A DNA stretch of 40,289 bases, taken from assembly GCA_003990765.1 (NCBI GenBank), contig RBNJ01000124.1:1-40289 (forward strand). Reading direction: 5' to 3'. The translations under genes and the position numbers were made by a program. The first letter of the stretch is position 1. The number at the start of each line of letters is the position of its first letter. The notes beneath the pieces were generated by a model. It had not been told where the DNA came from. It searched no databases and worked only from the letters and a program-made list of their open reading frames with translations. This DNA is from Jimgerdemannia flammicorona (Eukaryota). Shown here in pieces: positions 1,111-23,114 of this stretch.

Positions 1111-2345
1111 TGCCTAAGAGTTTTTATAGCCAAAAGGTAATTTCTTTTATATCTTATATCAAGTAAGATTCTTTCTACTTAGGCTTCAGCTTTTGTGATC
1201 ATGAAGCTTCTACTATATTCTGATATACCAGAACTTTGTCTTCTATCTTAATAATCTCTAGAGACTTGTAAATCTTTTCAGTATTATTCTATTATAGTAT
1301 CTATACTCTGGTTATATAATTCTCAGTCTTCTTTCTAATTTAATATAGTCTCTATATTTTTGTATCTCTATATTTCTATATAGCATCTCTATTAGATAAT
1401 AAGGTTTCTTGAGAACTTCTTCTCTAAATAACATCTCTCAAGAGATAAAATAGGTACTTTGTGATCAGATATCTCAGAGCATAGATAATGCTATTGGCAG
1501 ATAGTGATCTCAGTTTTCATAGTTATTACAGATTTTAGTGATGATATTCTTGAGAGTCTTATTAGTTCTTTCTGCTTATTTATTTCTCTAAGGATAATAG
1601 ACTATAGTCTGAGCAGTGGAAGAGGAGAGCCCAGCAGGAGCCAGAGGAGTAAATCCAGAGCCAGTGTCAAAGCAAATAGAAGATATATAGAAGAGTATAT
1701 ATAAGAGAGATGAATAAAGAATATAACAAAAAATGTATCAGTCATTTACTACTATATAAAAATATAGTCCTTATATATAAAATATGATATTTCAAATAGG
1801 AGAATATGCTACAACTCAGTGTTAACTGAATTAGGAATCACATAATTACTAGAGATAAGCAGAGATAAAGAGAGAGTCAATTCTAATTATAGGATAAAAA
1901 TCACAAATAAATACAAATAAAACAAATCTAAATCAAGATTAAAAAACATCTGCAGACCCCAGAGAGATCTCACACTTGCTTCAGAGTCTTGGCCTTACTC
2001 TGCTCTCCTCTGCTGTCTTTGGTCCCTTACTTTACTTAGACTTACTATAGCTTGCTCTATTTCAGCCTCACCCCTCACTTATGCTCACTCCTCCAGGGTC
2101 TGCAGATGTTTTTTAATTTTAATTTGGATTTGTTTTATTTATATTTATTTGTGATTTTTATCCTACAACTAAGATTGGCTCTTTCTTTATCTCTACTTAT
2201 CTTCAGTAGTCATATGGTTCCTAATTCAGTTCACCCTAAGTTGTAGCATATCCTCTTATTTGAAATATTATATTTTATATATAAGGACTGCATTTTTACA
2301 TATATAGTAATAAATGGCTAATGTATTTTTGGTTATATTCTTTGT

Positions 2346-3290
2346 TTGTCTCTCTTATATATGCTCTTTTATATATCTTTTATTCACTTTGACACTAGCT
2401 CTGGGTTCACTCTCCTGGCTCTCACTGGGCCCTCCTCCTTCACTACTATACCATCTACTCTCAGGGCCTCTACCTCTATTGATGAGGTTATGGATGAGAT
2501 TCCTCCTCCTCTCCTTCCTCTTGCTTTTATCTCTGCCACTGTCTCATTTGAGACCTATATCTTATCTGTCATCCTTTCCCTCTCTCTGAACCTTTGCCTG
2601 TCTGGTTGTCTACTCTTCTCTCAGTTCCAATTAGTCCTTACTCTTTCTGCCAAGAAAGCTTATCTTTACTGTAACATTGATGTCATTGCTCTGCCCACTG
2701 TCTGCTACTCTATTCTTTCTGAGGCCTGCCACCAAGCCCTCTCTGAAGAAGTTCATACTGCCACTACTACTGCTAAGCTTATTACTACCAATACTGTTAC
2801 TGCTTCTGCTACTGCCACTTCTGCCTCCTTCCACCATATCTGTGCCTCCTTTGTGGCCCTCACATCCTCCCACTTCATGAATGCTAACCCTTTCTGTGGC
2901 TTTGCCATCTATGATGTTTTCTCTACTACTACTGATATTGATACTATTTGTTACTTTCTCTTTGCTGGCATCTCCTTTGTTACTCATCTTTATGAGCAGA
3001 AAATAGCATATACTACCACCACTGCTTGCACTACCACCACTACTCCCCTGTCTGTCTCCTCTGAGGTTTTGATCTCTGAGGCCATCTACACTAAAGCCTA
3101 TGCTACTGCTTATACTGAGGTTTATTTCTTTGCCACTACTGCTGCCAAGACTCTTGTCAAGATCTCTGCTAAGCTCAATAGGGCTTTTTCAGCCTCTTCT
3201 CAGTCTCCCTCCCCTACCAAGGCCTCCTCCTCCATTCCCTCTGCCCCCAAGCATGGCTGCCAACTTGGTTCTTACCCTGTCAGGACTTGA
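2346..3290 (+). pseudogene. PLE ORF1-like open stretch (Ala/Thr/Ser-rich), decayed
   Basis: 314-aa open frame in the ORF track, just downstream of the 5' pseudo-LTR and upstream of the RT. A plausible ATG is at 2490. No recognisable domain. Confidence 0.45.
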
Positions 3291-4329
3291 CTCTATGCTG
3301 TCTGCTCTGATCACCTCTACCATACTTACTGGTACCTGGTCAAGTCTGTCTGTTCCCATGGTAGTGTCCCTTATACTGCTGTCCCTTCAGCTACTCACTC
3401 TCTCTCTACCTCCTCTACTGACTTCTCCTCTGTCTCCTCTACCCATATTCCTGAATGTAAGAGCTATACAAAAGTCTGTGGCCACAAGGTCTGGCACTCT
3501 GACAGAGTGTACTCCTGCTCATTGGGCTCACTATCTTCAAAAAAAGTCAGAGAGAAGGAGAAGGCCTCCTGCTCTTAAACTTCTCCCCAGTATAGTTCTT
3601 CCCCAGATCTCTGTTTCTTCTCAGATTCTATTGTTGCTTCTGGTATGCCCTGAGTGATTCCTCATGCTGTCCCCCCTTTCTCAGTTATTTGTCCTGAACT
3701 TTTGGGTTTATTCTTCTCTTAGAACACTTTTGTCTCCTCCTTTTTCTTTAGCTGACTGCTTCCTTTCTCCTCTTCAAGTCTTTGCTTTATCCTTGGGTCC
3801 TTGCTTTGTCTTCTCTGCAACTCCCTCACAATTCTCCTTCACCAATCTGGCTCATCTTACACACTTCCATCATTCTTGACTTTGTTATCTTCTTTAAGAA
3901 TTATAGTGAGATACTCTCTTGCTATTATGTCTCTAGTAATTAGGTCCCTCCTCCCAATGTCTCTTCACACTGTATATTTCTTGACATGGCTTACTCACTA
4001 TCTGTTTCTAGATATACTTACTCTTGCTTAGTTTCAGACTATATCATACATACTGTACTTAAATCAATCAAGTAACTGCCTCTATATTTACTCACAGTTA
4101 CTGATAAGAATTAGGGTTTTATACTTATTCCTAAGTCACTCTATCTTGACAGCCTTTCTGCCCTCCTTTGAGCTGTAGTTTATAAGCCTAGTGCTCTTAG
4201 ATTGGATGAGGTTCTCACTTTTCTTCAGATTTCTCTGGCTTATACCAGATTACTTTCAGATTCTTTGTTTACAAACTCCATTTTTAACTTCTTCCAGGAC
4301 TCTTTGTCTTTGTCAGACATTTGTCTTCT

Positions 4330-5160
4330 GGTTTTTTATGCTCTTCCTAAAGTCTACAAGCCTACTTTGGCTTAGCATCTCATTATAGCTGCTTATAGCT
4401 TACTCACTACTGAGATTGTAAAGTAGTTATTCTACTTCTTTCTCTCTTGGATAGCTCTTCTACAATACTGTCTTGGGCCTGAGTACATAATTCTTCATGA
4501 CACTCAGGAGCTCACCCTTCTCTACTCTACCATTATGCCTATTCACCATTTTTCACATTTGGCCTCTAGTGACTTCTCTTTCTTCTATACTGCTATTTAT
4601 TTTGATAAGATCAATGATTGTCTTCACTTTTTAGGTTCTATTGTTTTTCCTTTAGATTTCCCAGTTTTGCTAGCTTCTATTGTTGAGCTTATACATACTC
4701 CTCATCTACAGCTCCAACTATTTTAAGTTGGCCCTTAACTCCTTTTATCAGACCTCTGGTATTACTATAGGAATAAATTATACCTCCACCCTTGCTAACC
4801 TTATTGGCCTGACCCATGAACTTCATATGATATGTGATCCTTCTTCACCTCTTTCTATCATATTCTGGGCTGGAGATATCTTCTTTTACTGATATATTGA
4901 TAACTTTATTATTCTTACTATTGCTAGTATTGATATTTCTAGTGTGTTTTATAGTATCTATCTATTCCATCATTCTATTACTTGGGTGTGTGGTATAACC
5001 AATATTCTCTTTTTAGACCTTTCCATTTCTCTTTCTCCCTTCTGAACTGTTGTTTATTCTCATTTCTCCCATTTCCAACAGTTCTCTGACTTCTGTTCCA
5101 ATCATCCTCATCACACTCTTCTTGAATACATTTATGGTAAGATATATCATCTTATACTAT
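4330..5160 (+). pseudogene. PLE reverse transcriptase core and thumb, disrupted
   Basis: PLE RT motifs occur in the correct order but with stops and frameshifts. Confidence 0.8.
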
Positions 5161-7029
5161 ACTGCTCCTGTCATTCTGATTGGGTGTCTGCTATTCAGGT
5201 TCTTGATAACTTCATAGTTCATCATTGTACCTACTCTATTTCTATCATTCATGATCTGCTTGCTTCTGTTGAATGGTGTATTGTTTGCTCTTCCCTCCTC
5301 TCTTTTCTTTATCTCTCTTTCCTTCTCTCCCTCCCCTCTTACTCTCTCCATACCCCCTCTTCATTTCCACTCCTGATTCTTATTATATTATTTGATTATA
5401 CTTGCTAGATTGTACAATGTTCTGATACTATTCTGCACTCTTCTCTTTTTTACCATAGACTTTATCTCTTTCTTAATATTTTCTGATTACTTATTCATAT
5501 CTTTCTTCTATTTCTTCTTTAATCCATTACTCTTATTTTGTGTTTTCATTATCTTCTGATATCTTCAGCTCTGCTAGAGAGGATTAAAAAACATCCTTGC
5601 TCCCTCTGGAGTCTTGTGCTTACTCTGGAGTCTCAGCCTTACTCTACTTCTCTCTACTATCTTGGGCTTCTTGCTTCACTTAGGCTCACTATAACTTATA
5701 CTATTTCAGCCTCACCCCTTACTCACACTCATCTCTCTGGAGTCTGTAGATGTTTTTTAATCTCAATTCAGATTTATTTTGTTTGTATTTTTTTGTGATT
5801 TTTATCCTGCAACTGGGATTGACTCTCTCTTTATCTCTGCTTATCTCTGGTGGTCATGTGATTTCTAATTTGGTTTGTCTTGAGTTGTGGTACATCCTAT
5901 TATTTGGGATATTATATTTTATATATAAGGACTGTATTTTTATATAGTAATAAAAAGCTGATGCATTTTTGGTTATATTCTTTATTCATCTCCCTTATAT
6001 ATATATACTCTTCTATATATCTTCTATTTACTTTGACACTGGCTCTGAGTTCACTCTCTTGGCTTCCACTGGGCTCTCCTCCTCCACTCCTATGCTGAAT
6101 CTTGTACTTTTTATAGAGAATCTCAAAGAACTGATTCATAAATTCTGTTTCTCTATCTATAGTTACTTATAATAGGGTCTTAAATTGATAGATGATTTCT
6201 TTGTGGTAGAAATCAGTAATTGATTATATATTGACTTCCTTGAGAGATTCTGTCTCTATCTATTTTGTAAAAAGATCTATAATGACAATAATATATTGGT
6301 TGCCAGTCAAAGTCAAGGATAGAGGACTAATTATATCTATTATAATATATATAAAGAGTACTGATTCTATATATACTGATCCAGGAATTTGATTTTATTA
6401 ATCTTATTTCTATTTCTAGTATTTGTCACAGATCTTGATAAATTGTCTGATATTTTTCTCTATTTCTGACCACTATATTATTCTTCTTGCTTTATTATAT
6501 ATATTTGTTTCTTCTAGATAGTTAAGTTTATATACTAATTTCATTACTTGCTTCTTGTATTTAGGTATAACTAGTAGCTTTTCTTTCTTTAGTATTTCTC
6601 TATTAGTCTCAAATTATTTCTATATTCTATTGATAATTATTTATATCCATTCTTCCAGATATTGGAGTATCTTTAACTATTCTAGATAGGTGATAATTCC
6701 ATAGTAAAGTTCCTTATTCATAATTGATTTGCTGGTTAAGAGTTCTTCAGGATATCTGTGAGAGAGTATCTATATTGGCATTAGTTCTTCCAAAATAGTA
6801 TATAATAGTTATATCATAGATTTGTAACTTTATAATCGATCTAACATAGATTTCTTTAAGTTATCCAGTAGTCAGTAGTTAGATAAGAGCTAAACGGTCT
6901 GTTTGAATGGTGAAGTATCTTTCTACAAGATAGTAGTAGAACTTCTCTATGGCAAGATATTCCAACTTATAGAATTCATATACTTTTTCAGCTTCTCAAG
7001 TTTCTTAACTAAGATATGTAATTATATAT

Positions 7030-8614
7030 TATAATAGTGATCTCAGAATAATGATATCAGTATAGAAGACAGTCTTTCTTTATAAGCTACTAGATCATAG
7101 TACAAGAAGATCATATGGTATAACTCACCTAGGCTACAAGATGAACAATAATGACCAACTGTGAGTCATTGTAACTACAAGATAGACATCTTGAGGAATA
7201 TAAAAGAAAGATTGAGAAATTATAGTAATAGTAACTTAAACAAGACTTACAGAAATAGCTCAAAAGACTTACTATAAACAAAATATCTACTACTCACCAA
7301 ACCTCAAGATCCAGAAACTACCAAGGCTCCTTAGTCCAGAAAAAAAATATTCCAAGACATTAGAAGAGCTATGAGGACTCATATAAGAAGGACTCCTAGC
7401 CTCAATTTAGGTACTGGTGATCCTTATCATTATATTCTCTACTACTATGAAATGGAAACAGAATCACCATTATTACCAAATGCCTCTAGATATGATAGAA
7501 ATATGAAATAGGAAACCTTCTCTACCAGGAATTTCCTCAGATCAGTTACCAAGAAATACAAAATACCATTCCTATGGATATATATGAAATAAGGATAGCT
7601 AAGAAGATTTATTAGATCTTTAGGCATCAATCTCTAACTTGGAGTATACTAAGATCTCAGACTTCAAGAAACTATCAGCTTACCATACCAATGTACTAGA
7701 GGTCATAGTGGCCACAGAAGCCCAGTCTACTATTACTCTCAATAGTGATGAGATAGGAGAGTTCTAGAACTCTATCCTTGAGAACAATCTTGATCAATTC
7801 CTGTAAGAATTGATCTCAGCATTCCAAGGCCCCAGTATCTAGATTAGACCTCTCTAAGATCTTATATTTATCCTTTATTTTATGAAAGAGAATTTCATAG
7901 ATTGGAGAGCTCCAGATCTTCTTGTTTTCCCTACCACTGAATGAGATGATATCACCTGTGATGATATCATTAATGATGATATCATCCTGTATGATATGTG
8001 TGAAGTACATGAAATATATGATATATATGAAATGGTCAAAACATTCATAGACCTCATCTCCTTTGAAGATATCCTATCTCTGACCTCTGGCCTTGATAAT
8101 AGTGATGAAGATAAAGTCCCTATAGTCCTGAACTTTCTGCTCTAAGTTTTTGGTAATACTGAATTCTATCAGTATTTTTTTCTTATATAACTGTTATTCT
8201 TCTGGTATTCTGATCTTATATAACTCAGAAATTCTTTTGGTATTCTTTTTCTGTACTACTAAAATTCTACCAGCATTCTGAACTTGTACTTATAATCATA
8301 GTTTTCTATATTCTTATATTTTATTTGGTTATTGGAATTTATATTATAACTTAGCAACCATTAAATTATATTTTATATAAATATTCCTCTTATTTCCTTT
8401 GAAATAAAGTTAGTTTCAGTTCACTTATTCTCAATTCCATGCAAGCAATCTAAGAGATAACAAAACAGTTTAAAGATAAGAAGTTTAAGAACTATAAGAC
8501 CTTAGGAAGATACTCCAATAAGAACTTGCTTATAACAAACTTGAAGTTAGTTTAAGAGATATACCTTGAAGAGAATCTGATATATTTGAAGGACTCAGTA
8601 ACCACTACATGATA
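7030..8614 (+). mobile_element. Solo LTR of family B inserted in the RNase H of Gypsy A
   Basis: Reverse-complement match to 21640-23114 and 28796-30394. Termini TATAA (TGTAA) and TGATA (TGACA). 4-bp TSD ATAT at 7026-7029 and 8615-8618. The RNase H sequence rejoins across it. Confidence 0.85.
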
Positions 8615-9799
8615 ATATTCTACTTTGTCTTTCTTCTGGATCAGAACTACTTCTATATACTTACATCTATCTACAGAATAAATTCTTGAGTCTAATTAGA
8701 TCTTCTGAGGATAGGTATCTAGGTCAGCCTAATCTTGAGTTTATCAAATACTTTCTGTTATCTGCCAGTCTATTGAAACTTGACATTCTTCTTGTTTAGT
8801 TTATAGATTGGGCCTACAATATTGGAAAATCCTTTGATAAATCTGCAGTAGTATGAGGCTAGTCCCATGAAGGCTTAAACTTCAGTAACTGTGGTAGATC
8901 TTGAGTATACTGCTACTGCTTGAATTTTGAGAGAGTCTGTATATATTCTATCTCAGTTAATGATATGGTCAAGATAAGAGATCTCAATTTCTGAAAATTT
9001 ATACTTTTTAAGCTTGATATATAAGTCATACTATCTTAGCTTCTCTATCATCTGCTGGATATACTGTAGATATTTCTCAGCTATCTTGCTATAGATAATA
9101 ATATTATCTATATAAACTATCATCTATCTTCTCATATTATAGTAGAAGATTTTATTTATTATTTACTGGAAGCTTACTAGTATATTATACATTCTGAATA
9201 GTATTTATAGATAGATATAGATTCTGTTTAGGGTGATAAAGACTGATTTCTCACTTACTACTTCTATGAGAACAATTTGGTAAAATTCTAAGTATAAGTC
9301 CAAAGTACTGTAATACTGTACTTTATTTTCCAGAGTTATTAGGATATTACTGATGAGGGGCAATGATTGACAATCCTTCTTGGTAACTAGGTTGAGCTTT
9401 CAATAATCAATGTAGAGTCTTGGGGTGAATTTTTCTAGCTTGCTTGCTTTCTTTATGGCTAATATTACTAGTGAAGCTCAAGGATAGCTAGCTTCTTTGA
9501 TAATACTAGCTTCTTCCATCTACTTGATTTCTTCTCTGAGCCATTCATAGTAGGTTGGTAGAATTGGTTTTGCTTTTTAACAGATTGGTTCAGTATCTCC
9601 TGTATCTATATAATAATAGTAGTGTGGAGTCTTTTTCTTAATATTCTTGAAGTCTATAGCCAGAATATCTTTGAATTCATAGAGTATTTTCTTGAGTTCC
9701 TTTTTGAGTAGAAATTTATTTTTAATAATATAACTATACTTATTTGTAGTTTTCTTCTTCTTATGATCCAGTTTGGTAATCTTAGTACTAGTGAATACT

Positions 9800-10200
9800 C
9801 TTCTTTCTATGGATTTGAATTCCTTTCTTTTCTCTCTATTTTCTCTAACTTCTTAACTTCTATGATTTTTGGCTGAAGAACTGAGAATATTAACATTTAT
9901 ATCAGTCAGTAGTTCTTCTTAATTAGAAATGAAATTGTAGGGTTGTGGTTTCTAGTAATGAGTAGTATTTCTCCATATAATCTAAATTAATGACTTTCCC
10001 TTCAATAGTAATCTCACTCTTAGCCAGACTACTTCTTGTCTTAAGAATTCTGACATGGTCTTTTGGAATAGTTATCTCTAGATTTATTGTAAGTAGAGTA
10101 GTTGTCTAGAGCTTAAGTATAATTTCTTCTACTGTAACAATATCTATTTTAGCTACATTCTCTAACTTATATTCTAATAGAACTATATTAGGGTGAATCC
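9800..10200 (-). pseudogene. dUTPase domain remnant in Gypsy A pol
   Basis: KTRSSLAKSEITIEGKVINLDY...RNHNPT, colinear with the Gypsy B dUTPase. Lies between protease and RT. Confidence 0.8.
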
Positions 10201-11738
10201 TCTGAATCTTGACCTTGATTTCTTCTTCATTATTACTATCTTTTAGAAGAGCTGGTGACTCATCATCCTCTTTCTCTTTCTCTTCTCTTACTTGCTTTTC
10301 AAGAGCCTTCTATATTTTTTCATAGTATATCTTCTTGATACTACTGGTATACTGGTAGCAATCATTGATATACTCCATATAATATATCTTGATTACATGG
10401 GAGTAGACTCCTTGTGGTATATATTCTTCTACAATCTTCTTATACCAGTCCTCTTCACTAATCCATCCAACTTTCTTCTTTATTTTCTGAGTAGTCACTA
10501 TATAGACTTCTTCTTGCTCACTTTCTTCTTTCTCTACATATCTCTAGTACATAGTACTCCTTTATTGATATTGATAGAAATTCACATCTTCTGTCCTTTG
10601 TAGATAATTTGCATCTTCTGGGCATTCAGATTAATTATTGCTCTAGCTTTATAAAACCACTAGTTGCTGATGAGAATGTTATAGTTGGTTACATTAGTTA
10701 CAATGATATCTATTAGAATTGTTGCTCTTCTAAACTTGATGGGAATATCCTGAATCTTTCCTAGAGGTGTGGCTCTTATACTATCTATTGTGACAAATAC
10801 TAATTTAGTTATTTCTTCTATCTCCCAACCTAGATGATCTGCTGTTTTCTTGCTGAGAAGACATCCTTCTGCTCCAGTATCAATAATTACTTTAAAGATT
10901 CTGTCCTTGATCTAATAGATTGCATAGGCAGAGATCTTGTAATTATCTTCACTTTCTTCTTCTGAGTCTTCTTGAACATTATTGGCCTTAGTTATCTTTC
11001 AACCTTACTCCTTGATTGTCTCAGTAAGTCTATATCATATTTGTTATCTAAATGTGAGAATTTCTACCAGCTGGCCAAAAGTTGTATTGACTTTTTATTA
11101 ACTGAGGTCCTTGAAGATATCATACTTGAAGATCTTAGTTTTGTAAAGCTTCTACTCCTTTTCTCCTTTAATAACTAGAGTAGTTTCTCAAATAATATCT
11201 TGAACAGTCTGTTTCAGCTCTATATCTTGATCTATTTCTTCAGCTTGGCTTTCTGTAGTAGTCTCTATCTATTTTTCTATAGAGTTCTTCTTGGGTCTCT
11301 CTGATAATCTCTTATAGGATTACTTGTAGACATTCTTCTTAATAGTCTTAGTAGGATAAGCTTTCCATTCTTCTTCATCTAATTCTCCAATCTCTTCAAG
11401 GTAATAGTATTAGCCTGTTCTTTATTTTGAATAGTATTGCTTAACTGGACTATAAGTGCACAACCTCTAAGCCACCAAAATCACATGTCACCCTTGGAAC
11501 AAGCCACTGAAATTACACATGACCTCTGAACAAATCTGGAAATCACCTGCTTGATCACGAAGCTGAGTCAAACTGAAGTCACAGCGCACAAAGCTGAGTC
11601 AATACGAAGTCACAGAATACAAGAATTACATAAACGGAATCTTACCAATTAGGACCAAATACATATATACTGAGCACTGAGACGCATCAAATCAGAGAAC
11701 CAAAACAAACAACAACCACAACTTCCAAATACACAAAC

Positions 11739-12836
11739 ATGACCACTGAGATCTACAACTACATCCGCACTAACATTTGAAATGTCATTATCAACCGAGC
11801 CACACCCCCTCTGCCCCTCATGAATATCCATAGCCTGGCACCCCTCTACTTCATAGAAGTCCAATGGAATGCCCTGAACATGCTTAGTGAGGCCCACCGA
11901 ATCAGACAAATCTCAAGCTACTACCAGATCGGCCGCCTCCTGGAAGACATAGTCGAACATCACTATGATACAGACATTACCCAGATGTCTCAACACCAGA
12001 AGCTCATCACCCGCAAACATTGAGAACTCTTCTATGAGTATAACACCTTTATTCCCCGCCTCTGAGTCACTATCAGTGAAATGGTTGCTACCCTGTCCTA
12101 TGGCCAAATTGATGACATGATACAAGAACTCAACCACAAGTACCTTGAATATGTGCAGACTACAGACAGAACCTTCCCACACCCTGATGACCATATTCTG
12201 CAAATGCCTCAAGTCAGATACACTATGAAGGATGTCTACGATATAATCCACTTCGACGAAGATGAAGCAGAAGACAATGACCCCTCTGATGCCGACATGA
12301 CCTCTAGCCAAGGATCTCTGCCAACCCTGATCACACTGCCAAACTTGCCAATGAACTTGCAATAGTTCATAACTGCATACGAGACTTATTGGGACAATGA
12401 CCACTGGCATGAATATCAACCCGCGTTTACCCCCGACTACTTCAACTACAATGAAGAAACCAGAGAACACAACCTGTACCTCCAGACAACCCTTGAGATT
12501 GAACCAACCACTCCACCATCTGAGTATGAGCAACATGAACTACAGCCACCAGCTTACTACAATCCTGCAACTCATAGTGCTGTAACCTATAGAAGGTATG
12601 CAGACAGTGAATCCGATGAAAGCAAAGACAATACATCCATCCTTCGCCCACCAACACCTTATCCAGCCTATGAGACAGATGATGCTATCCTATGGGATGG
12701 AGACGAAGTTCTAATGTACTATTATCTCAGCGAACAAGGAGAAGTAATTCGCAAACCATTATTTCTAGACAACTACTTCATCAGAGATGATACAATCGAT
12801 GGTGATGTCATCGAAGACTACCCAGACAGTGCCTAA
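11739..12836 (+). pseudogene. LTR-encoded 365-aa ORF of unknown function with 4 premature stops
   Basis: Single frame from ATG 11739 to TAA 12836, containing track ORFs 11820-12023 and 12081-12365. No frameshift. The interrupting stops are three TGA and one TAG, each revertible to CGA or CAG. The C-terminal half is acidic and Tyr/Pro-rich. Confidence 0.8.
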
Positions 12837-13025
12837 ACTCATAAATAGCCTAGCAGTCATAGTATAGTTAGATTAGCCTTGTACGATATGACTGTGAACT
12901 AACTCAGCAGTCAGATGATCTCTTGATATATCAGATCACACTTGTACTATGTGACTTCATTCCGACTCAGCAAAGCACTTAGTGCTACACCCATATTTAG
13001 CATAGTCCAGATAGCCCCTCACTAG

Positions 13026-13033
13026 TATAAATA
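13026..13033 (+). promoter_or_regulatory. TATA box of LTR C
   Basis: TATAAATA followed by a C-rich tract, downstream of the ORF and upstream of AATAAA, as expected near a U3/R boundary. Confidence 0.55.
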
Positions 13034-14053
13034 CCCCCTCCCCCAGACCTCAGAATCTCAGACTTGAACAATCTGAACATAACTCCTGAGCACTTCTCCA
13101 CAATATCCCTTCACACAAATACTTCTAGTATAGTAATATCATGAATAGTAAATAAACCTATTCCATAACCCACAAACTACTCTTAAGTAAATCCGCTCCT
13201 TGTTAGGTCCCACTCCTAACCCCATCATGAAATTCCCTAATTGGTTATTGTCTGCAGCAATACACCAATTCAACTAAGCTGGTCTTAGTTTCTTGAACTT
13301 CCTGAAATACGGAAAATCCTGAACATCCAGAACTAGTCTGGAAAAGGACTTTGGTTGAGACATCAACCCAATCTTGAAATCAATAAGCATAGAGGACATA
13401 CTCCATATGAAATTGATCTTGATCATAAGAAAACAGTCTTCCAGAACATCCAGAATATCCAGAAAACCCTTCCAGAACTACATAACAGTTACTCTAAAAA
13501 GCAACCCTCTTACATGGACCTTGTGCTTGATTTTACTTATATATTTATATAAGTAGTAGTCTTCTTCACAAATATAGTAAGTATCTCTCTTCTTATCTAA
13601 GGTGATAGCAAACTTCTGGACTGGGCAGCAGTCTCTTCCTCTAATTTTCTTTACTATATCTTCTAAGTGAGTAGTTATTTTAGCAAACTTCTTAGTAAGT
13701 TCTTCCATAAGATCACTGTTTCTCTACTGCTCAGTAACTCTTAGCTGAGATGTATTTCAATTGATCACTATAGTAGGAATCACACTAGTTGCCTTAAGTG
13801 CTTCAATTTTGACTTCAGTAACTTTTTCTATTATATAGTCTTATAGATATCTGACTATCCAGTATTGCTGGACATAGGTGATCTTTTATACTAGATTCAG
13901 AACTACTAATGATAAGCAGATAGCTATGGCTATCTCTGAATAGACTCTTTTTATAAAGGTTGCTTCAGCTACTTAGTCTCAGATGATATTAGCATAATCT
14001 GCAAGAATTATCTAATATCAGATTCTGATATAGAATATGTTTAGATCCTTACT

Positions 14054-14055
<2 letters not shown>

Positions 14056-14091
<36 letters not shown>

Positions 14092-14478
14092 GTCTCAAGA
14101 ACTTCTACTTTATTACCAAACTATCTATGTTATACTAATATAAATGAATCCCTCACCCAATCCTATAAGGAAGCTCCCTCCTCTCTATATCATTCTCTTG
14201 AAATATTATTATTCCCTCTGCTACTCCAATTCTTCTCTCACTTTTTCTACAAATTATCTCTACTAGTTACTACTAATACTATACTAGCACTATACCCCCT
14301 CTACTATCTATTCAACAAGTCTAACATCAACCACTCCTATCTAGCAATCCTTATTTCTAGTATCAACTGTTGATCATCCTCAAATATATATAACTAATAT
14401 CCAGCAAGCCCAACCCAAATAGCTAGTATCCATCCCAACATCAGCTACTCATCTCCTACCCCCCTTCCACCAATCTTT
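14056..14478 (-). mobile_element. 5'-truncated LINE 3' end with poly(A) tail, inserted in the gag of Gypsy A
   Basis: Poly(T) at 14056-14088. TSD ATCCTTACT(T/C)A at 14045-14055 and 14479-14489. The purine-rich minus strand resembles the 3' part of the LINE at 19000-19900. Confidence 0.75.
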
Positions 14479-14847
14479 ATCCTTACTCATTTCTTGATAT
14501 ATTATATTGAGCTAATTCTTTAGAGCTTGCTTAATCTCATCTGTATAGTAGATAGTTCAGAGCCAGACCTTCTATACTACTAATATAGTATTATTATCAT
14601 TTTTTACATAGGTTACAGCTATAAATACTACTCTTACTAGTTCTTGGAGACTGAAGAGTATGAGGACTACTTATTGTCTTGCTGTCAGAGTCCTTATAGT
14701 AGTATATTGTTTAAAGTTATCAATGAATATAATGATTAATTTATCTGAAGTATATCTGTAGAATACTGATAGTCTTATATCTATTTTGTCTAGATGTCTT
14801 AATTTGATTTATATAGTTGTTTGAGTGATAGTAATTGTTTATTATTC

Positions 14848-14898
14848 AGCTTGAAAGTGAGAGATTTGTCTTGAATCACTAGCTAATGGGCACTAAGT
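14848..14898 (-). promoter_or_regulatory. PBS and leader of Gypsy A, shared with Gypsy B (28745-28795)
   Basis: The minus strand reads ACT-TAGTGCCCATTAGCTAG directly after the LTR end, consistent with a decayed TGGTGCCCATTGG. The primer tRNA is not assigned. Confidence 0.55.
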
Positions 14899-15235
14899 TG
14901 TAATGTAGTAGATACATAACTATAGAAATATGTTAGATTTCTATATCTTGAAAACTTGATCTTCTTTGACTTCATAGAGTCCTCAGAATACAGTGAATGA
15001 GTTCAAAGTATATCTACCTACAGGCTTACTAGTTCTCTTGTTTTTTCTTTACTTTGAACTATTTTGATCTGAGGTTTATTTACTTTAGATACTGGAGATA
15101 TTTATATAGTTTGCTAGCTATAAGGTGACTAAGGTATAACTATATTTCCTGTAAGTCATTCTTTACAAGTATTAATTCTTGACATCTGTAAAATCTTGAC
15201 ATTTGTGAATATTTTAACATTTGTTAAAGTTTTTA
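14899..15235 (-). repeat. 5' LTR of Gypsy A, truncated by the LINE
   Basis: Starts TGTAATGTAGTAGAT and aligns with 81-~440. Abuts the PBS-like sequence. Confidence 0.8.
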
Positions 15236-18200
15236 AAAGAGAGCAGATAGTCAGGATAGAGAATGAGCTATAGGATATTCCAGAGGAGAAATGAGATAAG
15301 TTTAATGCTAGAACAGATACTACCATATTAAAGAAAGAGAGGTCTGTAACTCTGAAGGAGAAAAATATTAATAATTTATACTGAATGAGTGTGGTGATAA
15401 ACAAGTTGACTATAGAGAAGCTAAAAGAGGTAGATCTATATGTTATCAGTAAGAAGTATTTGATAAGGATATTGAGAGATAATAGAGTAGTCAAGAAACT
15501 AACAGTAGAAGTTTTAGCAGTATTTTTAGAAGAGGAAGAATATGAGATAGATACTATAAGAGAGGCTGAACTGATAGTGTTTGCTAGAGAGTATGTTACT
15601 TTTTAATAAAGGTAGAGATATAGATTACAGCTCTGGCAGGCAGTATGTAAGGAGTATAAGGAGGAGATAGAGACTAAGAATAATAAGGTGATTGCTAAGA
15701 TTCTGGCTAGACTAAATATTAAAAAGGTTAAGACAGAGGAGGTAATTACTAAATATGGTTTAGACTTAGCTTAAGAGGAGATGAGTATAGAATTGTAAAG
15801 AAGATAGGACTATAATATAATAATAATTTTCTATAAATAGTATAACTAATATTTTCTCACTGAATGTGAATAGTCTGAGAGACTCTATGAGATATTGATT
15901 TTGCTTAGCTAAAGAGTTTGAAGGTAGATCTTTTTCTATTACAAAATATATACTATAAGAAAGATTTTGACAAATATAAGTAAGTGAGAAAATAGAATAG
16001 TGAGGCAGTTTAGAGGAACAAGGTGGGAATTTTAGTATAGAGTAGTAAAGAGAAGCTTTGTAAGATTGAGGGTTAGAGTGACTACTTGGCTTGAGGAGAG
16101 TGAAGAAGGCCAGAGTAGAAGCTAGTGATTATTAGCTTTTACTATTATTTAATAGTTCAGAGTGACTAAGTAGAGTGAATGGAGAGACTTCATAAGTGTA
16201 GCATACTTACTGAGGCTGATGTAGATATACTAGATAAGAACTTTAATATAATATATAATGTACTATTAGATAGAACTAAATAATAGAGAGAGATATGCTA
16301 GGGGCTAGAGTAGTGATCTGAAAGTCTGAGAGAAGGTAGAGTATCTAAGTTCTTTAGTGGATACTAGCAGAATAATATAGAAAAACTAAAGGATCTATAC
16401 TTATTAGATAGATGGACTTGTGATAAGGATTGACTGAATATTGACTGTTGACTGCTGGAGATTAAATATTTAAGTGACTTTAGAGATAGAGTAGTGTCTA
16501 TAGTCTATTTATTGGAGACAATTGGGTTATGATCAGTTTGAGAAGAGTGAAGATAAGCCTAGATATTAGCATCTTAATTTCTCCTTGTTAGAGGAAAAGG
16601 AGTTATAGAGTACTTAGGTAGAGAATATTGAATTGAAGATTATTTACTAAAAATATAAGAGAGGTCTATTGAGTAAAGTTGAAAGAGACTACCAGAGTAT
16701 ATTGAAGTGAGACTGACAGATTTATAGGAGCTCAGCAGAGATAGTAGGTGAGGTGGGCCTTCTATAGAATAAAAAGGTTATATAGAGATATTAGAGCAGA
16801 AGAATGTAAAATATTAGAGGTTGAGGTGAGTCTAGCAGAAGGTGATAGAGTTGATGAGAGTATTGAGAGAAGAGGAGGAGGCTTATATATAGAGTATATT
16901 GACTTAGCTCAGATGGCAGAGGCTTGAGAGTGAGAGGCCTTCTAAGTATTTATTTAGGCTTCTTCAGGCAAGGAGAGTGAGACAGTAGTAAAATAGTATA
17001 CTTAATAAGGAGAATACTCTAGTAAATGAAATATAGAGAATCTTAGATTCTTTAAAGAATAGATAGGATAGTCTGTAGAGTGAGAAAGAAGAGAGTACTG
17101 ATAGAGAGAAGATTGAGTACTCTCTGAAGGACTAGCATCCTCTACTAGTAGATAGTCTTGAGAACTTAGTTTGTCTGGTTCTAGAGGATGAAATTCTGAG
17201 TATCTTGTTAACTATGAAGCAGGACACAGCTCTTGATGAGGATAGCTTGCCTTGGGACTTCTGGAGGAAGATAGTTAAAGTCTCAGAAGTATTGAGAGAG
17301 ATGGTGGCACTATATAACTTCATTCTTATGTCTAAGAAGTAGATTGGGAGTCAGGATCTTGATCTGGTAGTACTGTTATTTAAGGATAAAAGTAGAAGAG
17401 AGAATTAGAAAAATTAGAGACTAATTATATTCCTAGATATAGACAGGAAGTTAGTCATAAAGGTAATTGTTGTAAGATTACAAAAGGTGGCTCAGTAGAT
17501 GTTAGGAGTTAAGTAGTGGAGTTTTATTAGTAGTAGACTGATTAGAGATAAAATGGCCTAAGTTTATAATATATATAATTGAGAGAATAAGAACTGGTGG
17601 ACTGAATAGATGACTGACTTTCTGGATCAGAAGAAAGCTTATAATTGAATTTGACAAGTCTGACTAGAGAAGATATTAGCTAGAATAGATATCTTTCACA
17701 GATTTCAACTATTAATAGTTAGTCTATTAGAGAGTAGTTAGATAGTAATTTTGTATAATGACTATTATAGTATTACTTTTATATTAGAGAGAGAATTTTC
17801 TCAGAGAGACTCACTATTTTCTATTCTTTATATTTTATCATTAGAGCTATTAATGAATAAGATTCATTATAAGATATCAGAACTATTGATACTAAGAGTA
17901 GTCTGGAAGGTTGGGGCCTTTATAGATAATATAGTAGTTGGACTTAGCTCTGTTGATGATATGGGTAAATTGAGGGCCACTGTAGACTAGTATGAAGAGT
18001 ACTCTAAAGTAAAGCTAAACTGATATAAGTATGAGATAATAGTACTGGAGAATTATTTGATAAGTGAGAATATTATTGGAACAATTATATCTATAGAAGA
18101 AGTTGTATAGTATCTGAGCATATTCTGGTCAGTATATAGATCTATCTTATCTAGAGCTTAGTGAGAGAAAAAGGTAGTGAAATGGGGGACTATTCTTCAG

Positions 18201-19372
18201 AGTTAGGGGGGATACTATATTTCTCTTATTAGGTAAGTATCAATCCTGAATATCTACTGGCTGCTAAAGCTCTGATATCTGATATACTACTTAGACTTTC
18301 TAGTATAAGTAGTAAAGAAGTTGCTGAAGATAGCTATGAACTAGATTTGAGTAATAAGAAAGAGCCAGATAAGTTGGGAGGTCTTGAGACTCTAGTAGAT
18401 AGGAGAGATATAGATCTGATAGACTTTCTGAAGATGTTGTATTACCTTAGGGCTTGATGGTTAAAGAGAGCTATTGAGCTATAGGGAGGAGAGTAGGTAC
18501 TGTTGATGCAGATAGTCTAAGAGGTGAGGTTCTCTTCTAGAGAATTCTCTGATGATTTATTATCTATAGTTAGACTGAGAGATAGTAAGTACTTATGATA
18601 CAAGAGATTCTAGTATGAGGTAATAGAGAGAGCTCATCATATTGGCTTTTATTGACATAGTAATAAGAAGAAGACTCAATTGAGTTCTACAATAGTAGTG
18701 GGATAGACTTTTGTTGAGCAGTTCACTACTAGTGAACTTTGATATTAGTATAAGTATAGAGTATTAGTAGAGAGTGGGTCAGGATCTGTAGCCATTAGGC
18801 TGATAGACAGCCAGTATTAGTAAGACTTAAGACTGAGCTAGAGTATGATCTTAGAGTACTGAGGTATAGCAGTAGCTTTCTTTGAAGTTCTGAATAGTGT
18901 GGTGATATATCTTGAGAAAGAATATTATATTGAACTTTCAATCAGGATATTTGGTAGAAGATAACAGCTTTGAGTATAAGGATTGTTTTAATATAGAACA
19001 GAAAAAAGAGATTATATAGATACTTAAATATTAGCTAAGTGAGTATAAAATACTTAGTGACTTTTGGAGAAGAGTTGGAGGTTGTCTGGGGGTAAGTAGT
19101 ATACTGATAGAGAGGGGAGTAGATGAGATAACTTAAAGGAGTAGTTGATAGAGTATATTGATAATGAGTAGCTCACTGTTGGGTAGACATTAATAGTATA
19201 GGTAGAGCTAGTAGATACTATGTAACTATATATTAGAGAATGGGAGACAGATGGTCTTAGGAAAAAAGATAACAAGATGAGAGAGACTAATGGTAGATAT
19301 TATGTTTAGCTGGTGAAGAGGGTGGGGCCCTCAGAGAGGTCACTATTAGTATCTGATAGAAGAGATATATGA

Positions 19373-19383
19373 AAAAAAAAAAT

Positions 19384-19414
<31 letters not shown>

Positions 19415-19423
19415 TAAAAAAAA
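19373..19423 (+). repeat. A-rich tract flanked by a 15-bp direct repeat (poly(A)-only retro-insertion)
   Basis: AGAAGAGATATATGA at 19358-19372 and 19424-19438, around an A-run with TAAAA(A) units. Confidence 0.65.
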
Positions 19424-19503
19424 AGAAGAGATATATGAGAAGAGTAGTAGATATATTGCAGTAGTTAATGATATAGTTGTTTTTGAGAGAGTGAGGATAA
19501 GAG

Positions 19504-19789
19504 TAGTGCTCTCAATGAATTAAATCAAAGGTCTAATTTGATTTAAGATTCAATTTGAACTCTATTTTCAAAATGTAATAACTCAACAAAAACATGTTTA
19601 AATTTAATGATTTTTAGCTTATTAGATTCCTCTATATAAGAGAAATCTAACAAGCTAAAAATTATTAAATTTAGACATATTTTCATCAAGTTATTATATT
19701 TTGAAAAATAGTATTCAAATTAGACCCTCAATTGGATTCAAATTCAATTCAATTTGATTTGAATTGATTCAATTCATTTAGGAGTACTA
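19504..19789. mobile_element. Fold-back MITE (hAT-type), copy 1, inside the LINE 3' end
   Basis: Ends TAGTGCTC and GAGTACTA. The whole element is a near-palindrome centred ~19635. The 8-bp flanks GATAAGAG and GATAGGGA differ only by transitions. Confidence 0.78.
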
Positions 19790-19982
19790 GATAGGGAGAA
19801 GAGAGTGTATTAGGGTAGAGTAGAGTTGGATAGGTTGAATTGAGACTATTGATATGGTATGAGAACTATTATTTATTATAGAATAGTTAATAAAGAGGCC
19901 TAGTACTCATAAATAAATAAAAAAAAGAGACTTCTATCTTTTTTACAGATAATGATATCACTATTCTGAGGTCACTATTACA

Positions 19983-20260
19983 ATATATAGTCAAGAAAAT
20001 CTCAGAAAAAGATAATAAGAAAGATAACCTTTAAGAACTACTTAAGAAATATAAAGATGTTTTTTAAGAATTCTAAGAACTACTACCTACCTAAGCAGTA
20101 GAATATAATATTGGAACTATTTCTAATTCAGACCCTCTCTACTATAGAATCTATTAACTAACTCAATCTGAGCTAGAAATTTTCAAGGAATAATTAGCAG
20201 AATTAGCAAGCAAAGATCTCATCTATCTATTAAAATTATTATAGTATACTAATTCTCTTT
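19983..20260 (+). pseudogene. RT N-terminal fragment of a different Ty3/Gypsy family (Tf2/chromovirus-like), inside an inverted segment
   Basis: Translation ELLKKYKDVF...VEYNIGTI.NSDP.YYRIY*LTQSELEIFKE*LAELASKDLI...ILF is typical of the Ty3/Gypsy pre-RT/RT1 region. Confidence 0.65.
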
Positions 20261-21598
20261 ATAGAAGACAGCCTTTTCTTATAAGTTACTAGATCAGAGC
20301 ATAAGAAGATCATATAACATAACTCACCCAGACTATAAGATGAGCAATGATGACTAACTATAAGTCATCATGACCATAAGATAGATATCTTAAGGAATAT
20401 AAAAAAAGAACTAAGGAACTATAGTAGCAGCAACTTAAATAAGACTTACAAAATCCCAAAATAGTTCAAAGACTCACTATAAATAAAATGTCTACTATCT
20501 ACCAAACCTCAAGATCCAGGAACCACCAAGGCTTCTTAGTTCAAGAAAGGATATTCTAAGATATCAGGAGAGCTATGAGAACTCACACTAAAAGGACTCC
20601 TAGCCTTAACCTGAGTACTGATGATCCTTATCACTTTATCCTTAACTACTATAAAATGGAAACAAAGATCACTATCACTACTGAATACCTTTGGATGTAG
20701 CAGAAATATAAAATAAGAAACCTTCTCTATCAGGAATTTTCTCAGACCAGTCCCCAAGAGATATAAGATGCTACCTCTATGGATATATATAAATTGAGAG
20801 TAGCTAATAAGATCTATCAGATCTTCAGATATACACCTTGATCAATCTCCAACTTGGTATATACCAGAGTCTCAGACTTCAAAGAATTGTCAGCCTGCTA
20901 TATAGATGCACTAGAGGCCATAGTGGCTACAGAAGTCCAATTCACTATTACTCTCAAAAGTGATAAGATAGGAGAGTTCTGGAATCCCATCCTTGAGGAC
21001 AACTCAGATTAATTCCTATAAGGATTAATTTCAGTATTCCAAGGCCTCAGTATCTAAGTTAGACTCTCTCAAGATCTCACCTTTATCTCCTACTTTGCAG
21101 AGAAGAACCTCATAGATTAGAGAGCTCTTAATCTCCTTGCTCTCTCTGCTGCTGTCAAACATAATGATATTATCCTACTAATTGATGATATATGTAAAGT
21201 ATATAAAATATGTAACATATGTAAAATATGTAAAATATATGAGATGGATAAAATGTTCACTAATCTTATTTCCTTTAAAGATATCCTATCTCTAACCTTT
21301 AGCCTTAATAGTGATGAAGATAAAGTTCTCAGGATTTTGAATATTCTGCTCTGAGTTCTTTGTGTAACTGTTATACTTCTGGTATTCTGATCTTATATAA
21401 CTCAAAAATTCTTTCAGCATTCTGATCTTATACTATCAATTATACAGATACTTGAATTTGTACTTACAACTAAAGTTTTCTGTATTCAAGTACCTCATTT
21501 ATTTAGTTATTGGAATTTATATTTAGTTTTATAGCTTAGTAACTATTGAATTATATTTTGTATAAATATCCCTCTCATTTCTTTGAAATAAAGTCAGT
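20261..21598 (+). repeat. LTR family B copy, missing its first ~32 nt (found inverted at ~19950-19982) and ~200 nt at the 3' end
   Basis: Colinear with 7062-8415. Confidence 0.82.
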
Positions 21599-21639
21599 AG
21601 TTAAGTAATAAAGTATTAAAAACTCAAGTCTCTAACTAC

Positions 21640-23114
21640 TGTCACGTAATAGTCACTGAGTCCTTCAAATATGCCAGATTCTCTTCAAAGTGTATCTCTT
21701 AGACTAACTCAAGTTTGTTATAAGCAAGTTCTTATTGGAGTACCTTCTCAAGGTCTTATAGTCCTCAAACTTTTTATCTTTAAACTGTCTTGTTGTCTCT
21801 TTAGATTGCTTGCAAGGAAGTATGTGTATTGCACTGAGTAGACTGACTTTATTTCAGAGAAATAAGAGGGATATTTATACAAAATATAATTCAATGGTTG
21901 CTAAGATATAAAGTGAAATATAAATTCCAATAACTAAAATAAAATACCAGGACAGAAAAGCTACTAAGTTCCAGGGTTGGTACTGATAGTTGTATAGGTT
22001 CAGGATACTGATATAATTTGGTGTTACATCAAAATACCAGTACTAGCATTATTTAGTATAATTAAGAGACTTAGAGCAGAATGTTCAAGACTATAAGGGC
22101 TTCATTATCAGAGGTCAGAATGTCTTTAAAGGAGATGAGGTCCACAAACTTATCATTATTATATGTTTTACATATGTCATGCAGGATGATATCATTACCA
22201 ATGATGTTATCATGTTTAGCAGCAGGGAAATCAGGGGTTCTCCAATCTATAAGGTTCTCTTCTACAAAATAAGAGACAAATGTGGGGTCTTGGGGATCTA
22301 ACCTAGATGCTTGGGCCTTGGAATACTGAGATCAATCCTTACAGGAATTGGTCTGAGTTGTCCTGAAGGATGAGATACCAGAAGTCCTCTACTTCATCAC
22401 TATTGAGGGTAATAGTGGACTGGGCTTCTGTAGCCACTCTGGCTTCTAGTGCATTGATACAGCAGGATGACAGGTCTCTGAAATCTGAGACTCTAACATA
22501 CTCCAAGTTGGGGATCGACTATGGTACATGTCTGAAGATCTGATGAATCTTCTTAGCTATCCTTATTTCACATATATCTATGAGAGTGGTATCTTATAGC
22601 TCTTGAGTACTGGCCTATGGGAACTCCTGGCAGAGGAGGTTTCTTATTTTGTATTCCTGCCACATTTGGAGGCATTCAGTAGCAATGGTGATCCTGGTTT
22701 CCATTTCATGATAGTAGAGAATATAGTAATAAGAGTCACTAGTACCCAGGTTGACACTAGGAGTCCTTCTTGAGCAGGTCCTCATGGCTCTTCTGATGTC
22801 TTGGAACATCTTTTCTTCGACCAAGGTGTCTTGGTGGTTCCTTGACCTTGAGGTTTGGTGGGCAGCAGACATTTTATTTGTAATGAGTCTTTTGAGCTAT
22901 TTTGAGATTAGTGGGTCTTGTTGGTTGCTATTACTACAGTTCCTTGATCCTTCTTTTATATTTCTTAGGATGCTTATACTGTGGTCACAATGACTCACAG
23001 TTGGTCATTATTGCTCATCTCATATGCTGTATAATCTTCTTGTACTTCGATCTGGTAGCTTGTAAGGAAAGACTGTCTTCTGTGCTGATATCATCATTCA
23101 GGGGTCACCGTTAC
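21640..23114 (-). repeat. 3' LTR of Gypsy B
   Basis: TGTCA and TTACA termini. Matches 28796-30394. Retains a few CpGs. Confidence 0.88.
22071..22872 (-). pseudogene. LTR-B-encoded ORF remnant, present in all four LTR-B copies
   Basis: Track ORF 22615-22872 continues through TAG/TAA stops: MWQEYKIRNLLCQEFP*ASTQEL*DTTLIDICEIRIAKKIHQIFRHVP*SIPNLEYVRVSDFRDLS, then an acidic tail. The copy at ~7502 reads YEIGNLL. Confidence 0.72.

Follow-up and report, generated by a model that had tools for sequence, protein, structure and literature searches.

Among the described systems closest to the locus reported here, the sag gene of mouse mammary tumor virus (MMTV), a vertebrate retrovirus, codes for a membrane superantigen, and the Cassandra TRIM elements carry a 5S RNA gene in their LTRs that is read by polymerase III. 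Foamy viruses encode Tas (Bel1), which acts through an internal promoter and binds DNA directly; herpesvirus VP16 is an analogous activator. An ORF region of the 3' LTR is named for MMTV in the accessible part of PMC2118998. When the literature was searched for LTR ORFs, MMTV or its superantigen was recurrent among the matches listed. In rice, the elements Retrosat2, RIRE3 and RIRE8 possess an extra, lineage-restricted ORF of unknown function (ORF0), together with LTRs of more than 3.2 kb and a very long R, according to the available portion of PMC3485330. In the open-access literature searched, we found no report of a protein gene borne by the LTR of a fungal retrotransposon.

We analysed a transposon-rich stretch of 40,289 nt from the Endogonales fungus Jimgerdemannia flammicorona (the whole of which is referred to here as the window), whose genome is given as more than 77% repeats in the accessible text of PMC10386755. 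Within it lies a 2064-bp LTR-like insertion (Table 1), which a first-pass annotation had described as a solo LTR with TG/CA-type termini, a 5-bp target-site duplication and a complete gene in its U3. The duplication, TGGAC, was indeed found on both sides. The termini form a 6-bp inverted repeat in which five of the six bases are complementary; the 3' end reads CTTACA, in keeping with the annotated type, but the 5' dinucleotide reads TA, so that a TG terminus needs a G>A change. From this presumed change we infer that the original ends were TGTAAG and CTTACA, and a G>A at the 5' terminus is compatible with the decay pattern of the ORF relative to its homologue P0003, described below.

The insertion interrupts an older element of gypsy type within its gag region, and the flanks are collinear with a sibling of that element (10552-11252 with 26934-27640, and 13647-13707 with 27981-28042). 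When an empty-site model was computed against this sibling, 36 of 58 bases were identical within 30 columns on either side of the junction, with a single 2-nt gap. Together, the collinear flanks and the empty-site alignment provide independent support for an insertion. The segment behaves as a solo-LTR-type insertion in that it has a 5-bp duplication and short inverted ends and breaks an older element precisely, and this part of the original description is supported.

No further copy of the segment was found within the window, nor any internal region of its family on which a Ty3/Gypsy assignment could rest. Likewise, tblastn of the ORF protein and its two relatives against the window revealed no additional copy and no link to gag, and a scan of bacterial and archaeal genomes gave 12 pattern matches, none of which was confirmed. 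When frames of the window were scanned for domains (150 of the 160 that run from stop to stop for 60 residues or more, the omitted 10 all lying beyond 39149), the gypsy-type domains present (protease, dUTPase, RT and integrase) proved to be a property of other elements. An Rfam scan of the window returned no RNA families and a tRNA scan no tRNAs. The ratio of observed to expected CpG was 0.38 in the segment and 0.31 across the window.

Table 1. Features of the LTR-like insertion and its junctions (window coordinates).
Feature	Position	Strand	Remark
Target-site duplication TGGAC, left copy	11446..11450		sequence, and junction check against sibling element
LTR-like insertion, putative solo LTR, 2064 bp	11451..13514	+	A+C-rich on + strand
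5' terminal hexamer TATAAG	11451..11456	+	inverted partner of 13509-13514, 1 mismatch (G>A, second base)
Two tandem 31-nt units (81-90% alike), TGAGTCA core	11556..11617	+	array ends 47 nt before TATATA
TATATA, candidate TATA box of ORF	11664..11669	+	
ORF, 365 codons + TAA, now pseudogene	11739..12836	+	without frameshift relative to two natural relatives
In-frame TGA, codon 14	11778..11780	+	W in P0003 (TGG>TGA, G>A)
In-frame TGA, codon 95	12021..12023	+	R in P0003 (CGA>TGA, at CpG)
In-frame TGA, codon 109	12063..12065	+	R in P0003 (CGA>TGA, at CpG)
In-frame TAG, codon 209	12363..12365	+	Q in P0002 (CAG>TAG)
Two more 31-nt units, inverted (12870-12909 and 12933-12972)	12870..12972	-	end 54 nt before TATAAA
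TATAAA, candidate promoter of element's genomic RNA	13026..13031	+	occurrence no more than chance
AATAAA, putative poly(A) signal, only one in segment	13151..13156	+	occurrence no more than chance
3' terminal hexamer CTTACA	13509..13514	+	
Target-site duplication TGGAC, right copy	13515..13519		read from sequence

An arrangement that is new in this analysis is that the gene has its own TATATA box and two 31-nt repeats, and that the same repeats stand, inverted, before a second TATA box. The repeats share a TGAGTCA core, which we take to be an AP-1/Gcn4-type site, and the inverted arms are 80-81% complementary to the upstream units. Since TATATA lies 70 nt upstream of the ORF start with no ATG in between, the gene may be self-contained, or may lie in a long R. 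As had been noted from the sequence at the outset, the ORF is located upstream of a TATA box and a poly(A) signal. However, composition alone predicts about 1.6 TATAAA and 2.4 AATAAA motifs in 2064 bases, so these two motifs are compatible with an LTR and are not evidence for one; with both at chance frequency, the assignment of the ORF to U3 was not established.

In our view the best explanation, in which we have moderate confidence, is that a retrotransposon family of J. flammicorona carried a complete, selected protein-coding gene in its LTR, and that the segment is what remains of one such LTR, a decayed solo copy (or at least an LTR-like insertion of the integrase type). Under this model, the gene would be a self-contained transcription unit within the LTR, driven by the two TGAGTCA-core repeats and TATATA, with translation from the first ATG downstream of that box and an mRNA ending at the single AATAAA of the LTR. 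The genomic RNA of the element would instead start at the downstream TATAAA, preceded by the inverted repeat pair. With a repeat pair at similar spacing from each TATA box (47 and 54 nt), both promoters may respond to the same factor, and the protein would be expressed from every intact LTR as a unit, solo LTRs among them.

A different partition of the LTR, which we consider unlikely, would put the ORF in a very long R and not in U3, as the first cistron of a genomic RNA that repeats it at its 3' end. A transcript of the whole element would then run from TATATA (11664) to a point beyond AATAAA (13151). The placement of TATATA shortly before the first ATG, with repeats upstream, would suit such a start, as would the chance-level occurrence of the downstream TATAAA, and the accessible portion of PMC3485330 describes a plant element, Retrosat2, with a 2023-bp R inside 3.2-kb LTRs and ORF0 upstream of gag-pol. 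Nevertheless, an R of about 1.5 kb would be unusual, and the recurrence of the repeat pair before the second TATA box is more simply understood as a second promoter.

It is also unlikely, in our assessment, that the segment is not an LTR and is some other mobile or captured 2-kb unit; the cassette 11556-12972 might, for instance, be a small transposon with inverted repeats that sits inside older LTR-like DNA, or the ORF might be a captured fragment of a host gene, useless to the element. Inverted arms of 30-31 nt, 80-81% complementary, do lie on both sides of the ORF, and the window holds no paired copy of the segment. Yet each side carries two repeats and not one, these do not mark any recognisable end of an element and, judged by eye, no target duplication adjoins them, on which grounds they were rejected as transposon ends. 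Moreover, the protein has no match to a transposase or any other family, the exhaustive protein search yielded two fragments and no long cellular paralogue, and it is at the outer limits of the segment that a 5-bp duplication and short inverted ends occur, as is typical of what an integrase produces.

Returning to the preferred reading, in which a decayed LTR carries a gene, we examined the 365-codon frame itself. The ORF contains four internal stops, whereas the remaining two + frames have 16 and 34; over a span one codon longer than the ORF, with the terminal stop included in the counts, shuffled sequences had a mean of 17.6 stops (sd 4.0), and none of 2000 shuffles was as low. Codon periodicity is also strong, with G making up 26.5% of bases at codon position 1 versus 10% at position 2 and 13% at position 3. 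An exhaustive phmmer search of 1.84 billion representatives, in a collection that includes annotated proteins of the window's own contig (such as the exportin-7 match P0006), returned two real relatives of the ORF protein, P0002 and P0003, the only two among about 15 billion public proteins. Both are fragments, from contigs of 998 and 1180 nt, and neither has been assigned to a protein family, one of them being labelled 'hypothetical protein' by its source. P0006 came from a separate protein search, and uninterrupted exons agree with it at 100%.

The alignment of the ORF with P0003 has no gaps over 128 residues, and that with P0002 has only two 2-residue gaps in 250 columns, both relatives keeping the + frame open (across 128 and 247 codons). 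All four stops correspond to sense codons in these natural relatives, which have W, R, R and Q there. Three of the stops are C>T changes on the + strand, and the TGG>TGA change is a C>T on the opposite strand. The first-pass annotation was therefore correct in describing a frameshift-free frame broken by four C>T-revertible stops, but not in calling the gene complete, since this copy is a pseudogene. The frame is a genuine former protein-coding gene, dead in the present copy.

We then compared the pattern of differences from each relative. Relative to P0002, 39 of the 79 replacements were BLOSUM62-positive, as against a proportion of 0.33-0.35 under a neutral model (p 0.005). The 61 single-step replacements were distributed 37/14/10 over codon positions 1/2/3, where the neutral expectation is 0.42/0.46/0.12 (p from 0.002 to 0.00003 for kappa values of 1-8), and the differences were clustered (variance 4.33 vs 2.1, P 0.0012). 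In the case of P0003, 16 of 17 single-step differences were transitions, 14 of the 17 were G>A or C>T in the direction of the window, and their distribution over codon positions (8/8/1) was in line with the neutral model. In these tests, which are protein-level and use no dS, and for which there is ascertainment in that both relatives were found because their frames are open, the differences from P0002 look selected, indicating that the gene family was under purifying selection deeper in its history, and those from P0003 look like recent neutral C:G>T:A decay of the window copy.

Of the 17 C:G>T:A changes inferred relative to P0003, seven are at CpG and the others in mixed contexts. In view of this, and of the accessible text of bioRxiv 10.1101/2022.12.01.518749, which confines RID-1 to Pezizomycotina and assigns DIM-2-like enzymes to Endogonales, RIP, which gives C>T mainly at CpA, was rejected as the cause of the stops and decay. 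Part of the excess of replacements at codon position 1 could stem from mutations falling preferentially on G and C.

That the ORF is a compositional accident of an A+C-rich strand, and not a gene, is very improbable and already largely refuted: although an antisense frame (11916-12539, 208 codons) is open too and composition can yield long frames, this frame pairs with the ORF codon by codon and has 6 stops in 367 codons, its openness follows from the rarity of TTA, CTA and TCA as sense codons, and the + frame bears coding and selection signals and is held open in two other copies. The antisense ORF was likewise rejected as a true gene, being the exact complementary frame of one that the relatives retain.

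The ORF protein has a net charge of -42, with 31 Tyr, 26 Pro, no Cys and no hydrophobic N-terminus. Helices are predicted, with low confidence, only within residues 3-141, and the tail is very acidic, rich in aromatic residues and proline, and probably disordered. These properties agree with the helical-looking N-terminal domain and acidic Tyr/Pro-rich tail that had been described. Pfam and PHROGs scans assigned the protein and its relatives to no family. Structure prediction followed by a fold search had been proposed as a check. AlphaFold2 gave a pLDDT of 31 on the three-sequence alignment and of 51, with five helices, on P0003 alone, both models being of low confidence, and Foldseek, queried with a low-confidence model, found no PDB matches at E <= 0.001. 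The ESM Atlas model of P0002 had a pLDDT of 0.39 and no usable feature match, and a PDB sequence search with a three-sequence profile gave a best E of 0.53. Two weaker matches, P0004 and P0005 (12 and 6 matching stretches), are unproven as relatives; P0005, a tandem-repeat protein of 68 residues, aligns with residues 111-148 at an identity of 32-34%. Judged by these comparisons, the protein is an orphan, without a known family or usable fold, and it has only two relatives. Whatever function it may prove to have would be a novel one.

A transactivator or anti-silencing role, as put forward at the outset, is speculation. In what is the most speculative step of the model, the protein would boost transcription from the repeat-bearing LTR promoters as an adaptor or co-activator with no enzymatic activity of its own, and would be neither an enzyme nor part of an envelope or capsid. 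Direct DNA binding is unlikely, because the N-terminal part has a net charge of -5 and there is no basic cluster anywhere in the protein.

The window also contains a second, unrelated LTR family, which flanks a gag-pol-dUTPase element (LTRs at 21647-23116 and 28803-30395) and has further copies at 7032-8607 and 20260-21646. These LTRs include a stop-poor stretch upstream of an AT-rich 3' part. In this stretch, 8 of 12 gap runs are multiples of three and one aligned frame has fewer stops, with stops common to different lineages in 16 codon columns and raw stop counts only about 1-1.7 sd below shuffles. Homology between the ORF and this ORF-like stretch was rejected (hhalign probability 0.3%). 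That LTR retrotransposons of Endogonales regularly carry self-contained accessory protein genes in their LTRs, with a product that feeds back on shared LTR promoter elements, is a broader proposition that we think improbable, and of whose recurrence the stop-poor stretch of the second family may be a hint. If true, each insertion would bring two copies of the gene, and a solo LTR would persist as a promoter together with its gene.

Should the segment prove to be an LTR, it would show that a protein gene can ride within the repeat in a fungus and outside the retroviruses. A solo LTR would then be a dispersed, possibly expressed gene copy and not merely a stray promoter, and the locus would offer a simple system for how retroelements gain accessory genes and regulate themselves. 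Set beside the known systems, the segment would share with the well-known MMTV sag (the 'LTR ORF') a complete protein frame within the LTR and hence present in both LTRs. In contrast to sag, however, the ORF protein is acidic, lacks Cys and a hydrophobic N-terminus, belongs to a fungal host and seemingly has its own TATA box, and no sequence relation to MMTV Sag or other LTR-encoded accessory proteins was detected (no Pfam family; PDB E of at least 0.53). The rice ORF0 differs in being situated, according to PMC3485330, in the internal region upstream of gag-pol, and not in the LTR, and in belonging to a plant; no homology was seen. Tas and VP16 serve as a working analogy for what the protein might be, namely an element-encoded, acidic-tailed activator with two promoters that share response elements, although unlike Tas the ORF protein has no basic region, and no homology to either was detected. 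Finally, the gene of Cassandra yields a non-coding RNA, whereas Rfam identified no RNA families in the J. flammicorona window; in its organisation Cassandra is nonetheless similar, since an independent gene with its own promoter resides in the LTR and each copy of the LTR is also a copy of the gene.

The 2064-bp unit, which we call LTR-like and regard as a putative solo LTR, is known here from a single copy, since comparison of the window with itself, as repeats and as protein against DNA, found no second one. TATAAG at its start and CTTACA at its end make up an inverted repeat of 6 bp in which one position is mismatched. The first-pass annotation had described TG/CA-type termini; the inverted hexamers and the 3' CA agree with this, but the 5' 'TG' is something we infer, the dinucleotide written there being TA. 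The reported target-site duplication is present on both sides. The unit was inserted into an older gypsy-type element, now decayed, that codes on the minus strand. The sequences on either side of the unit are collinear with a sibling of this element elsewhere in the window (10552-11252 with 26934-27640; 13647-13707 with 27981-28042). When a computed empty-site model was compared with the sibling, the alignment was continuous over the junction; within 30 columns on either side, 36 of 58 bases agree and there is one 2-nt gap. Both the insertion and the TGGAC duplication are therefore genuine. Over a wider region (7032-21646), two plus-strand LTR copies of a second family lie 13.2 kb apart and enclose the minus-strand gypsy fragment hosting the unit (~8.6-14.5 kb) and a block at 14.8-19.5 kb, in orientations incompatible with one simple element.

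Features of the insertion unit, its host element and the rest of the window
Feature	Position	Strand	Remarks
Insertion unit	11451-13514		2064 bp; TGGAC on each side
Target-site duplication TGGAC	11446-11450 and 13515-13519		both flanks of unit
Aspartic protease frame, host element	10663-10911	minus	just left of unit
dUTPase remnant, host element	9926-10105	minus	just left of unit
Two tandem 31-nt units, TGAGTCA core	11556-11617	+	end 47 nt before TATATA
TATATA	11664	+	main ORF begins 70 nt further
Main ORF	11739-12836	+	365 codons + TAA
Two further 31-nt units	12870-12909 and 12933-12972	inverted	end 54 nt before TATAAA
TATAAA	13026	+
AATAAA	13151	+	sole one in unit
Second LTR family, four copies	7032-8607, 20260-21646, 21647-23116, 28803-30395	+, +, -, -	~1.4-1.6 kb
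Fairly complete gypsy-type element	21647-30395	minus	LTRs 82% identical
dUTPase domain of that element	26061-26744	minus	between protease and RT; Pfam E 4e-23
RT of that element	25155-25544	minus	Pfam
Integrase zinc domain of that element	24359-24814	minus	Pfam
Exportin-7 gene, intron-rich	~33600-39700	minus	uninterrupted exons, 100% match to P0006

Four stops interrupt the main ORF (TGA at codons 14, 95 and 109; TAG at codon 209), against 16 and 34 in the other two plus-strand frames of the same span and 17.6 ± 4.0 in shuffles of it, none of 2000 of which had so few. G occupies 26.5% of first codon positions, compared with 10% and 13% of second and third positions. After the TATATA the sole ATG is that of the main ORF, and 37 codons upstream of this start the reading frame is closed by a stop. 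An open antisense frame of 208 codons (11916-12539, minus strand) is the codon-for-codon complement of the main ORF; the complementary frame has six stops in 367 codons, and we read its openness as a by-product of codon usage, in which TTA, CTA and TCA are rare. The main ORF is a dead gene, not a chance frame.

Searched exhaustively with phmmer (E <= 0.001), a set of 1.84 billion representative proteins yielded four matches, two of which are real relatives. P0003, a 128-residue 'hypothetical protein' from a 1180-nt contig, is 84% identical to main-ORF residues 1-128 and aligns without gaps, while P0002, an open frame of 247 residues from a 998-nt contig, is 67% identical to residues 115-364 over 250 columns, with two gaps of 2 residues each. 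The first-pass description of one frame, free of frameshifts and broken only by four C-to-T-revertible stops, was thereby borne out. At these positions the relatives have, in order, W, R, R and Q. Three of the stops are thus C>T changes and one is G>A, and two of the changes lie at CpG. P0004 and P0005 were not counted among the relatives, their matches consisting of many short stretches. P0005 (436 residues) contains 68-residue tandem repeats, all six of which are 32-34% identical to a short helical stretch of the main ORF (residues 111-148), a similarity that may reflect chance or a common small motif.

Selection was tested at the protein level against the codons of the window, a comparison that yields no synonymous rate, and both relatives were found because their frames are open. 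Relative to P0002, 79 of 246 aligned residues differ, and 39 of the 79 differences score positive in BLOSUM62, against a fraction of 0.33-0.35 predicted for the same codons by a neutral single-nucleotide model (binomial p 0.005). Single-step differences (n=61) fall 37/14/10 at codon positions 1/2/3, the neutral model giving ~0.42/0.46/0.12 (depending on kappa, 1-8, p lies between 0.002 and 0.00003); the position-1 excess may be raised further by a mutational preference for G and C sites. These differences from P0002 are also clustered along the protein (P 0.0012). The comparison with P0003 has another character: only 18 residues out of 125 are changed, all but one of the 17 single-step differences are transitions, 14 of these 17 differences are G>A or C>T in the direction of the window, and codon positions (8/8/1) are consistent with the neutral model. 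We read this as purifying selection during diversification of the family, followed by neutral decay of the window copy through cytosine deamination. Deamination of methylated cytosines is a better reading than RIP, because CpG is depleted (observed/expected 0.38 in the unit, 0.31 in the window) and because one preprint places DIM-2-like methyltransferases in Endogonales and RID in Pezizomycotina alone (excerpt of bioRxiv 10.1101/2022.12.01.518749). The LTR-like insertion in this Endogonales fungus thus holds a genuine orphan gene that was once under selection. This confirms the first-pass observation and partly supports its interpretation.

Judging from the layout of motifs, the gene probably had its own promoter. 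Both TATA boxes have the same pair of 31-nt repeats ahead of them, at comparable spacing. This suggests that the unit has two promoter modules and a common poly(A) signal: the first repeat-bearing promoter would drive the gene and the second would start the element's RNA, both using the same AATAAA. Alternatively, transcription of the element might start at the first TATA box, placing the gene inside a long R region; a 2-kb R has a plant precedent, in a family whose extra ORF is not part of the LTR (excerpt of PMC3485330). As in the original placement of the ORF, candidate TATA and poly(A) motifs (TATAAA and AATAAA) lie downstream of it; single hexamers of these kinds occur in the unit at chance frequency, and another candidate TATA box, the TATATA, precedes the ORF.

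The protein has no family in Pfam or PHROGs, in keeping with the earlier failure to recognise a gag, pol or env motif, and a PDB sequence search found no relative. Confidence in the structure models is low (pLDDT 31 for the complete protein, 51 for P0003), and a structural search with such a model gave no match at E <= 0.001. Predicted helices in these models are confined to about the first 140 residues and the amino-acid content is extreme, with a net charge of -42, 31 Tyr, 26 Pro and not one Cys, matching the helical-looking N-terminal domain and acidic Tyr/Pro-rich tail first proposed; there is no basic cluster and no hydrophobic N-terminus. Our best guess, held with low confidence, is an adaptor or co-activator with an acidic, aromatic-rich tail, which would exert feedback on the promoters that bear the repeats. 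Nothing supports a role as an enzyme, envelope or capsid protein.

Two minus-strand copies of the second LTR family bracket a dUTPase-RT-integrase element, with a purine tract adjoining the 3' LTR. Stops are sparse in one stretch of this family, which lies at 7447-8145 in the first copy and may be what is left of an ORF carried by the LTR; the evidence is mixed. In favour of a coding past, one aligned frame has 9-19 stops in each copy versus 19-27 in the others, 8 of 12 gap runs are multiples of three (p 0.019), and variability is ordered position 2 < 1 < 3 in all six pairs (7624-8142). Against it, 16 codon columns have stops in at least two lineages and six in all four copies, raw stop counts are just ~1-1.7 sd under shuffles, and the within-element LTR pair shows equally low variability at position 2. 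Profile comparison detected no relation to the main ORF.

J. flammicorona is a mycorrhizal fungus of Endogonales. A review gives its genome as ~240 Mb, with >77% repeats (excerpt of PMC10386755). The best hit of the exportin-7 gene, the J. flammicorona protein P0006, is modelled with 872 residues from a start at ~38103; its Endogone orthologue P0007 additionally matches 38268-39623, so that exons at the N-terminal end may be missing from the public model. Two blocks show extreme strand asymmetry, 15000-19500 (GC skew ~+0.23 to +0.53) and 2000-6000 (~-0.25 to -0.40), and no Pfam domains were found in their frames; the latter includes a stop-free frame of 322 codons (2322-3287) without a family match. 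Repeats connect 80-398 with 14898-15215, and the contig opens with a run of ~76 A (1-76), which could be a poly(A) tail left by retroposition or the edge of the assembly.

Cassandra elements offer an analogy for a gene inside an LTR, as do foamy-virus Tas and VP16 for the proposed activator protein. A literature search among a set of open-access papers found no LTR-borne protein gene in a fungal retrotransposon, and a phrase search for LTR ORFs led mainly to MMTV. Retrosat2 and similar plant elements carry their extra ORFs in the internal region (excerpt of PMC3485330). The nearest known arrangement to the gene inside the unit is that of MMTV sag, an ORF within the LTR; the two show no homology and differ in the type of protein.
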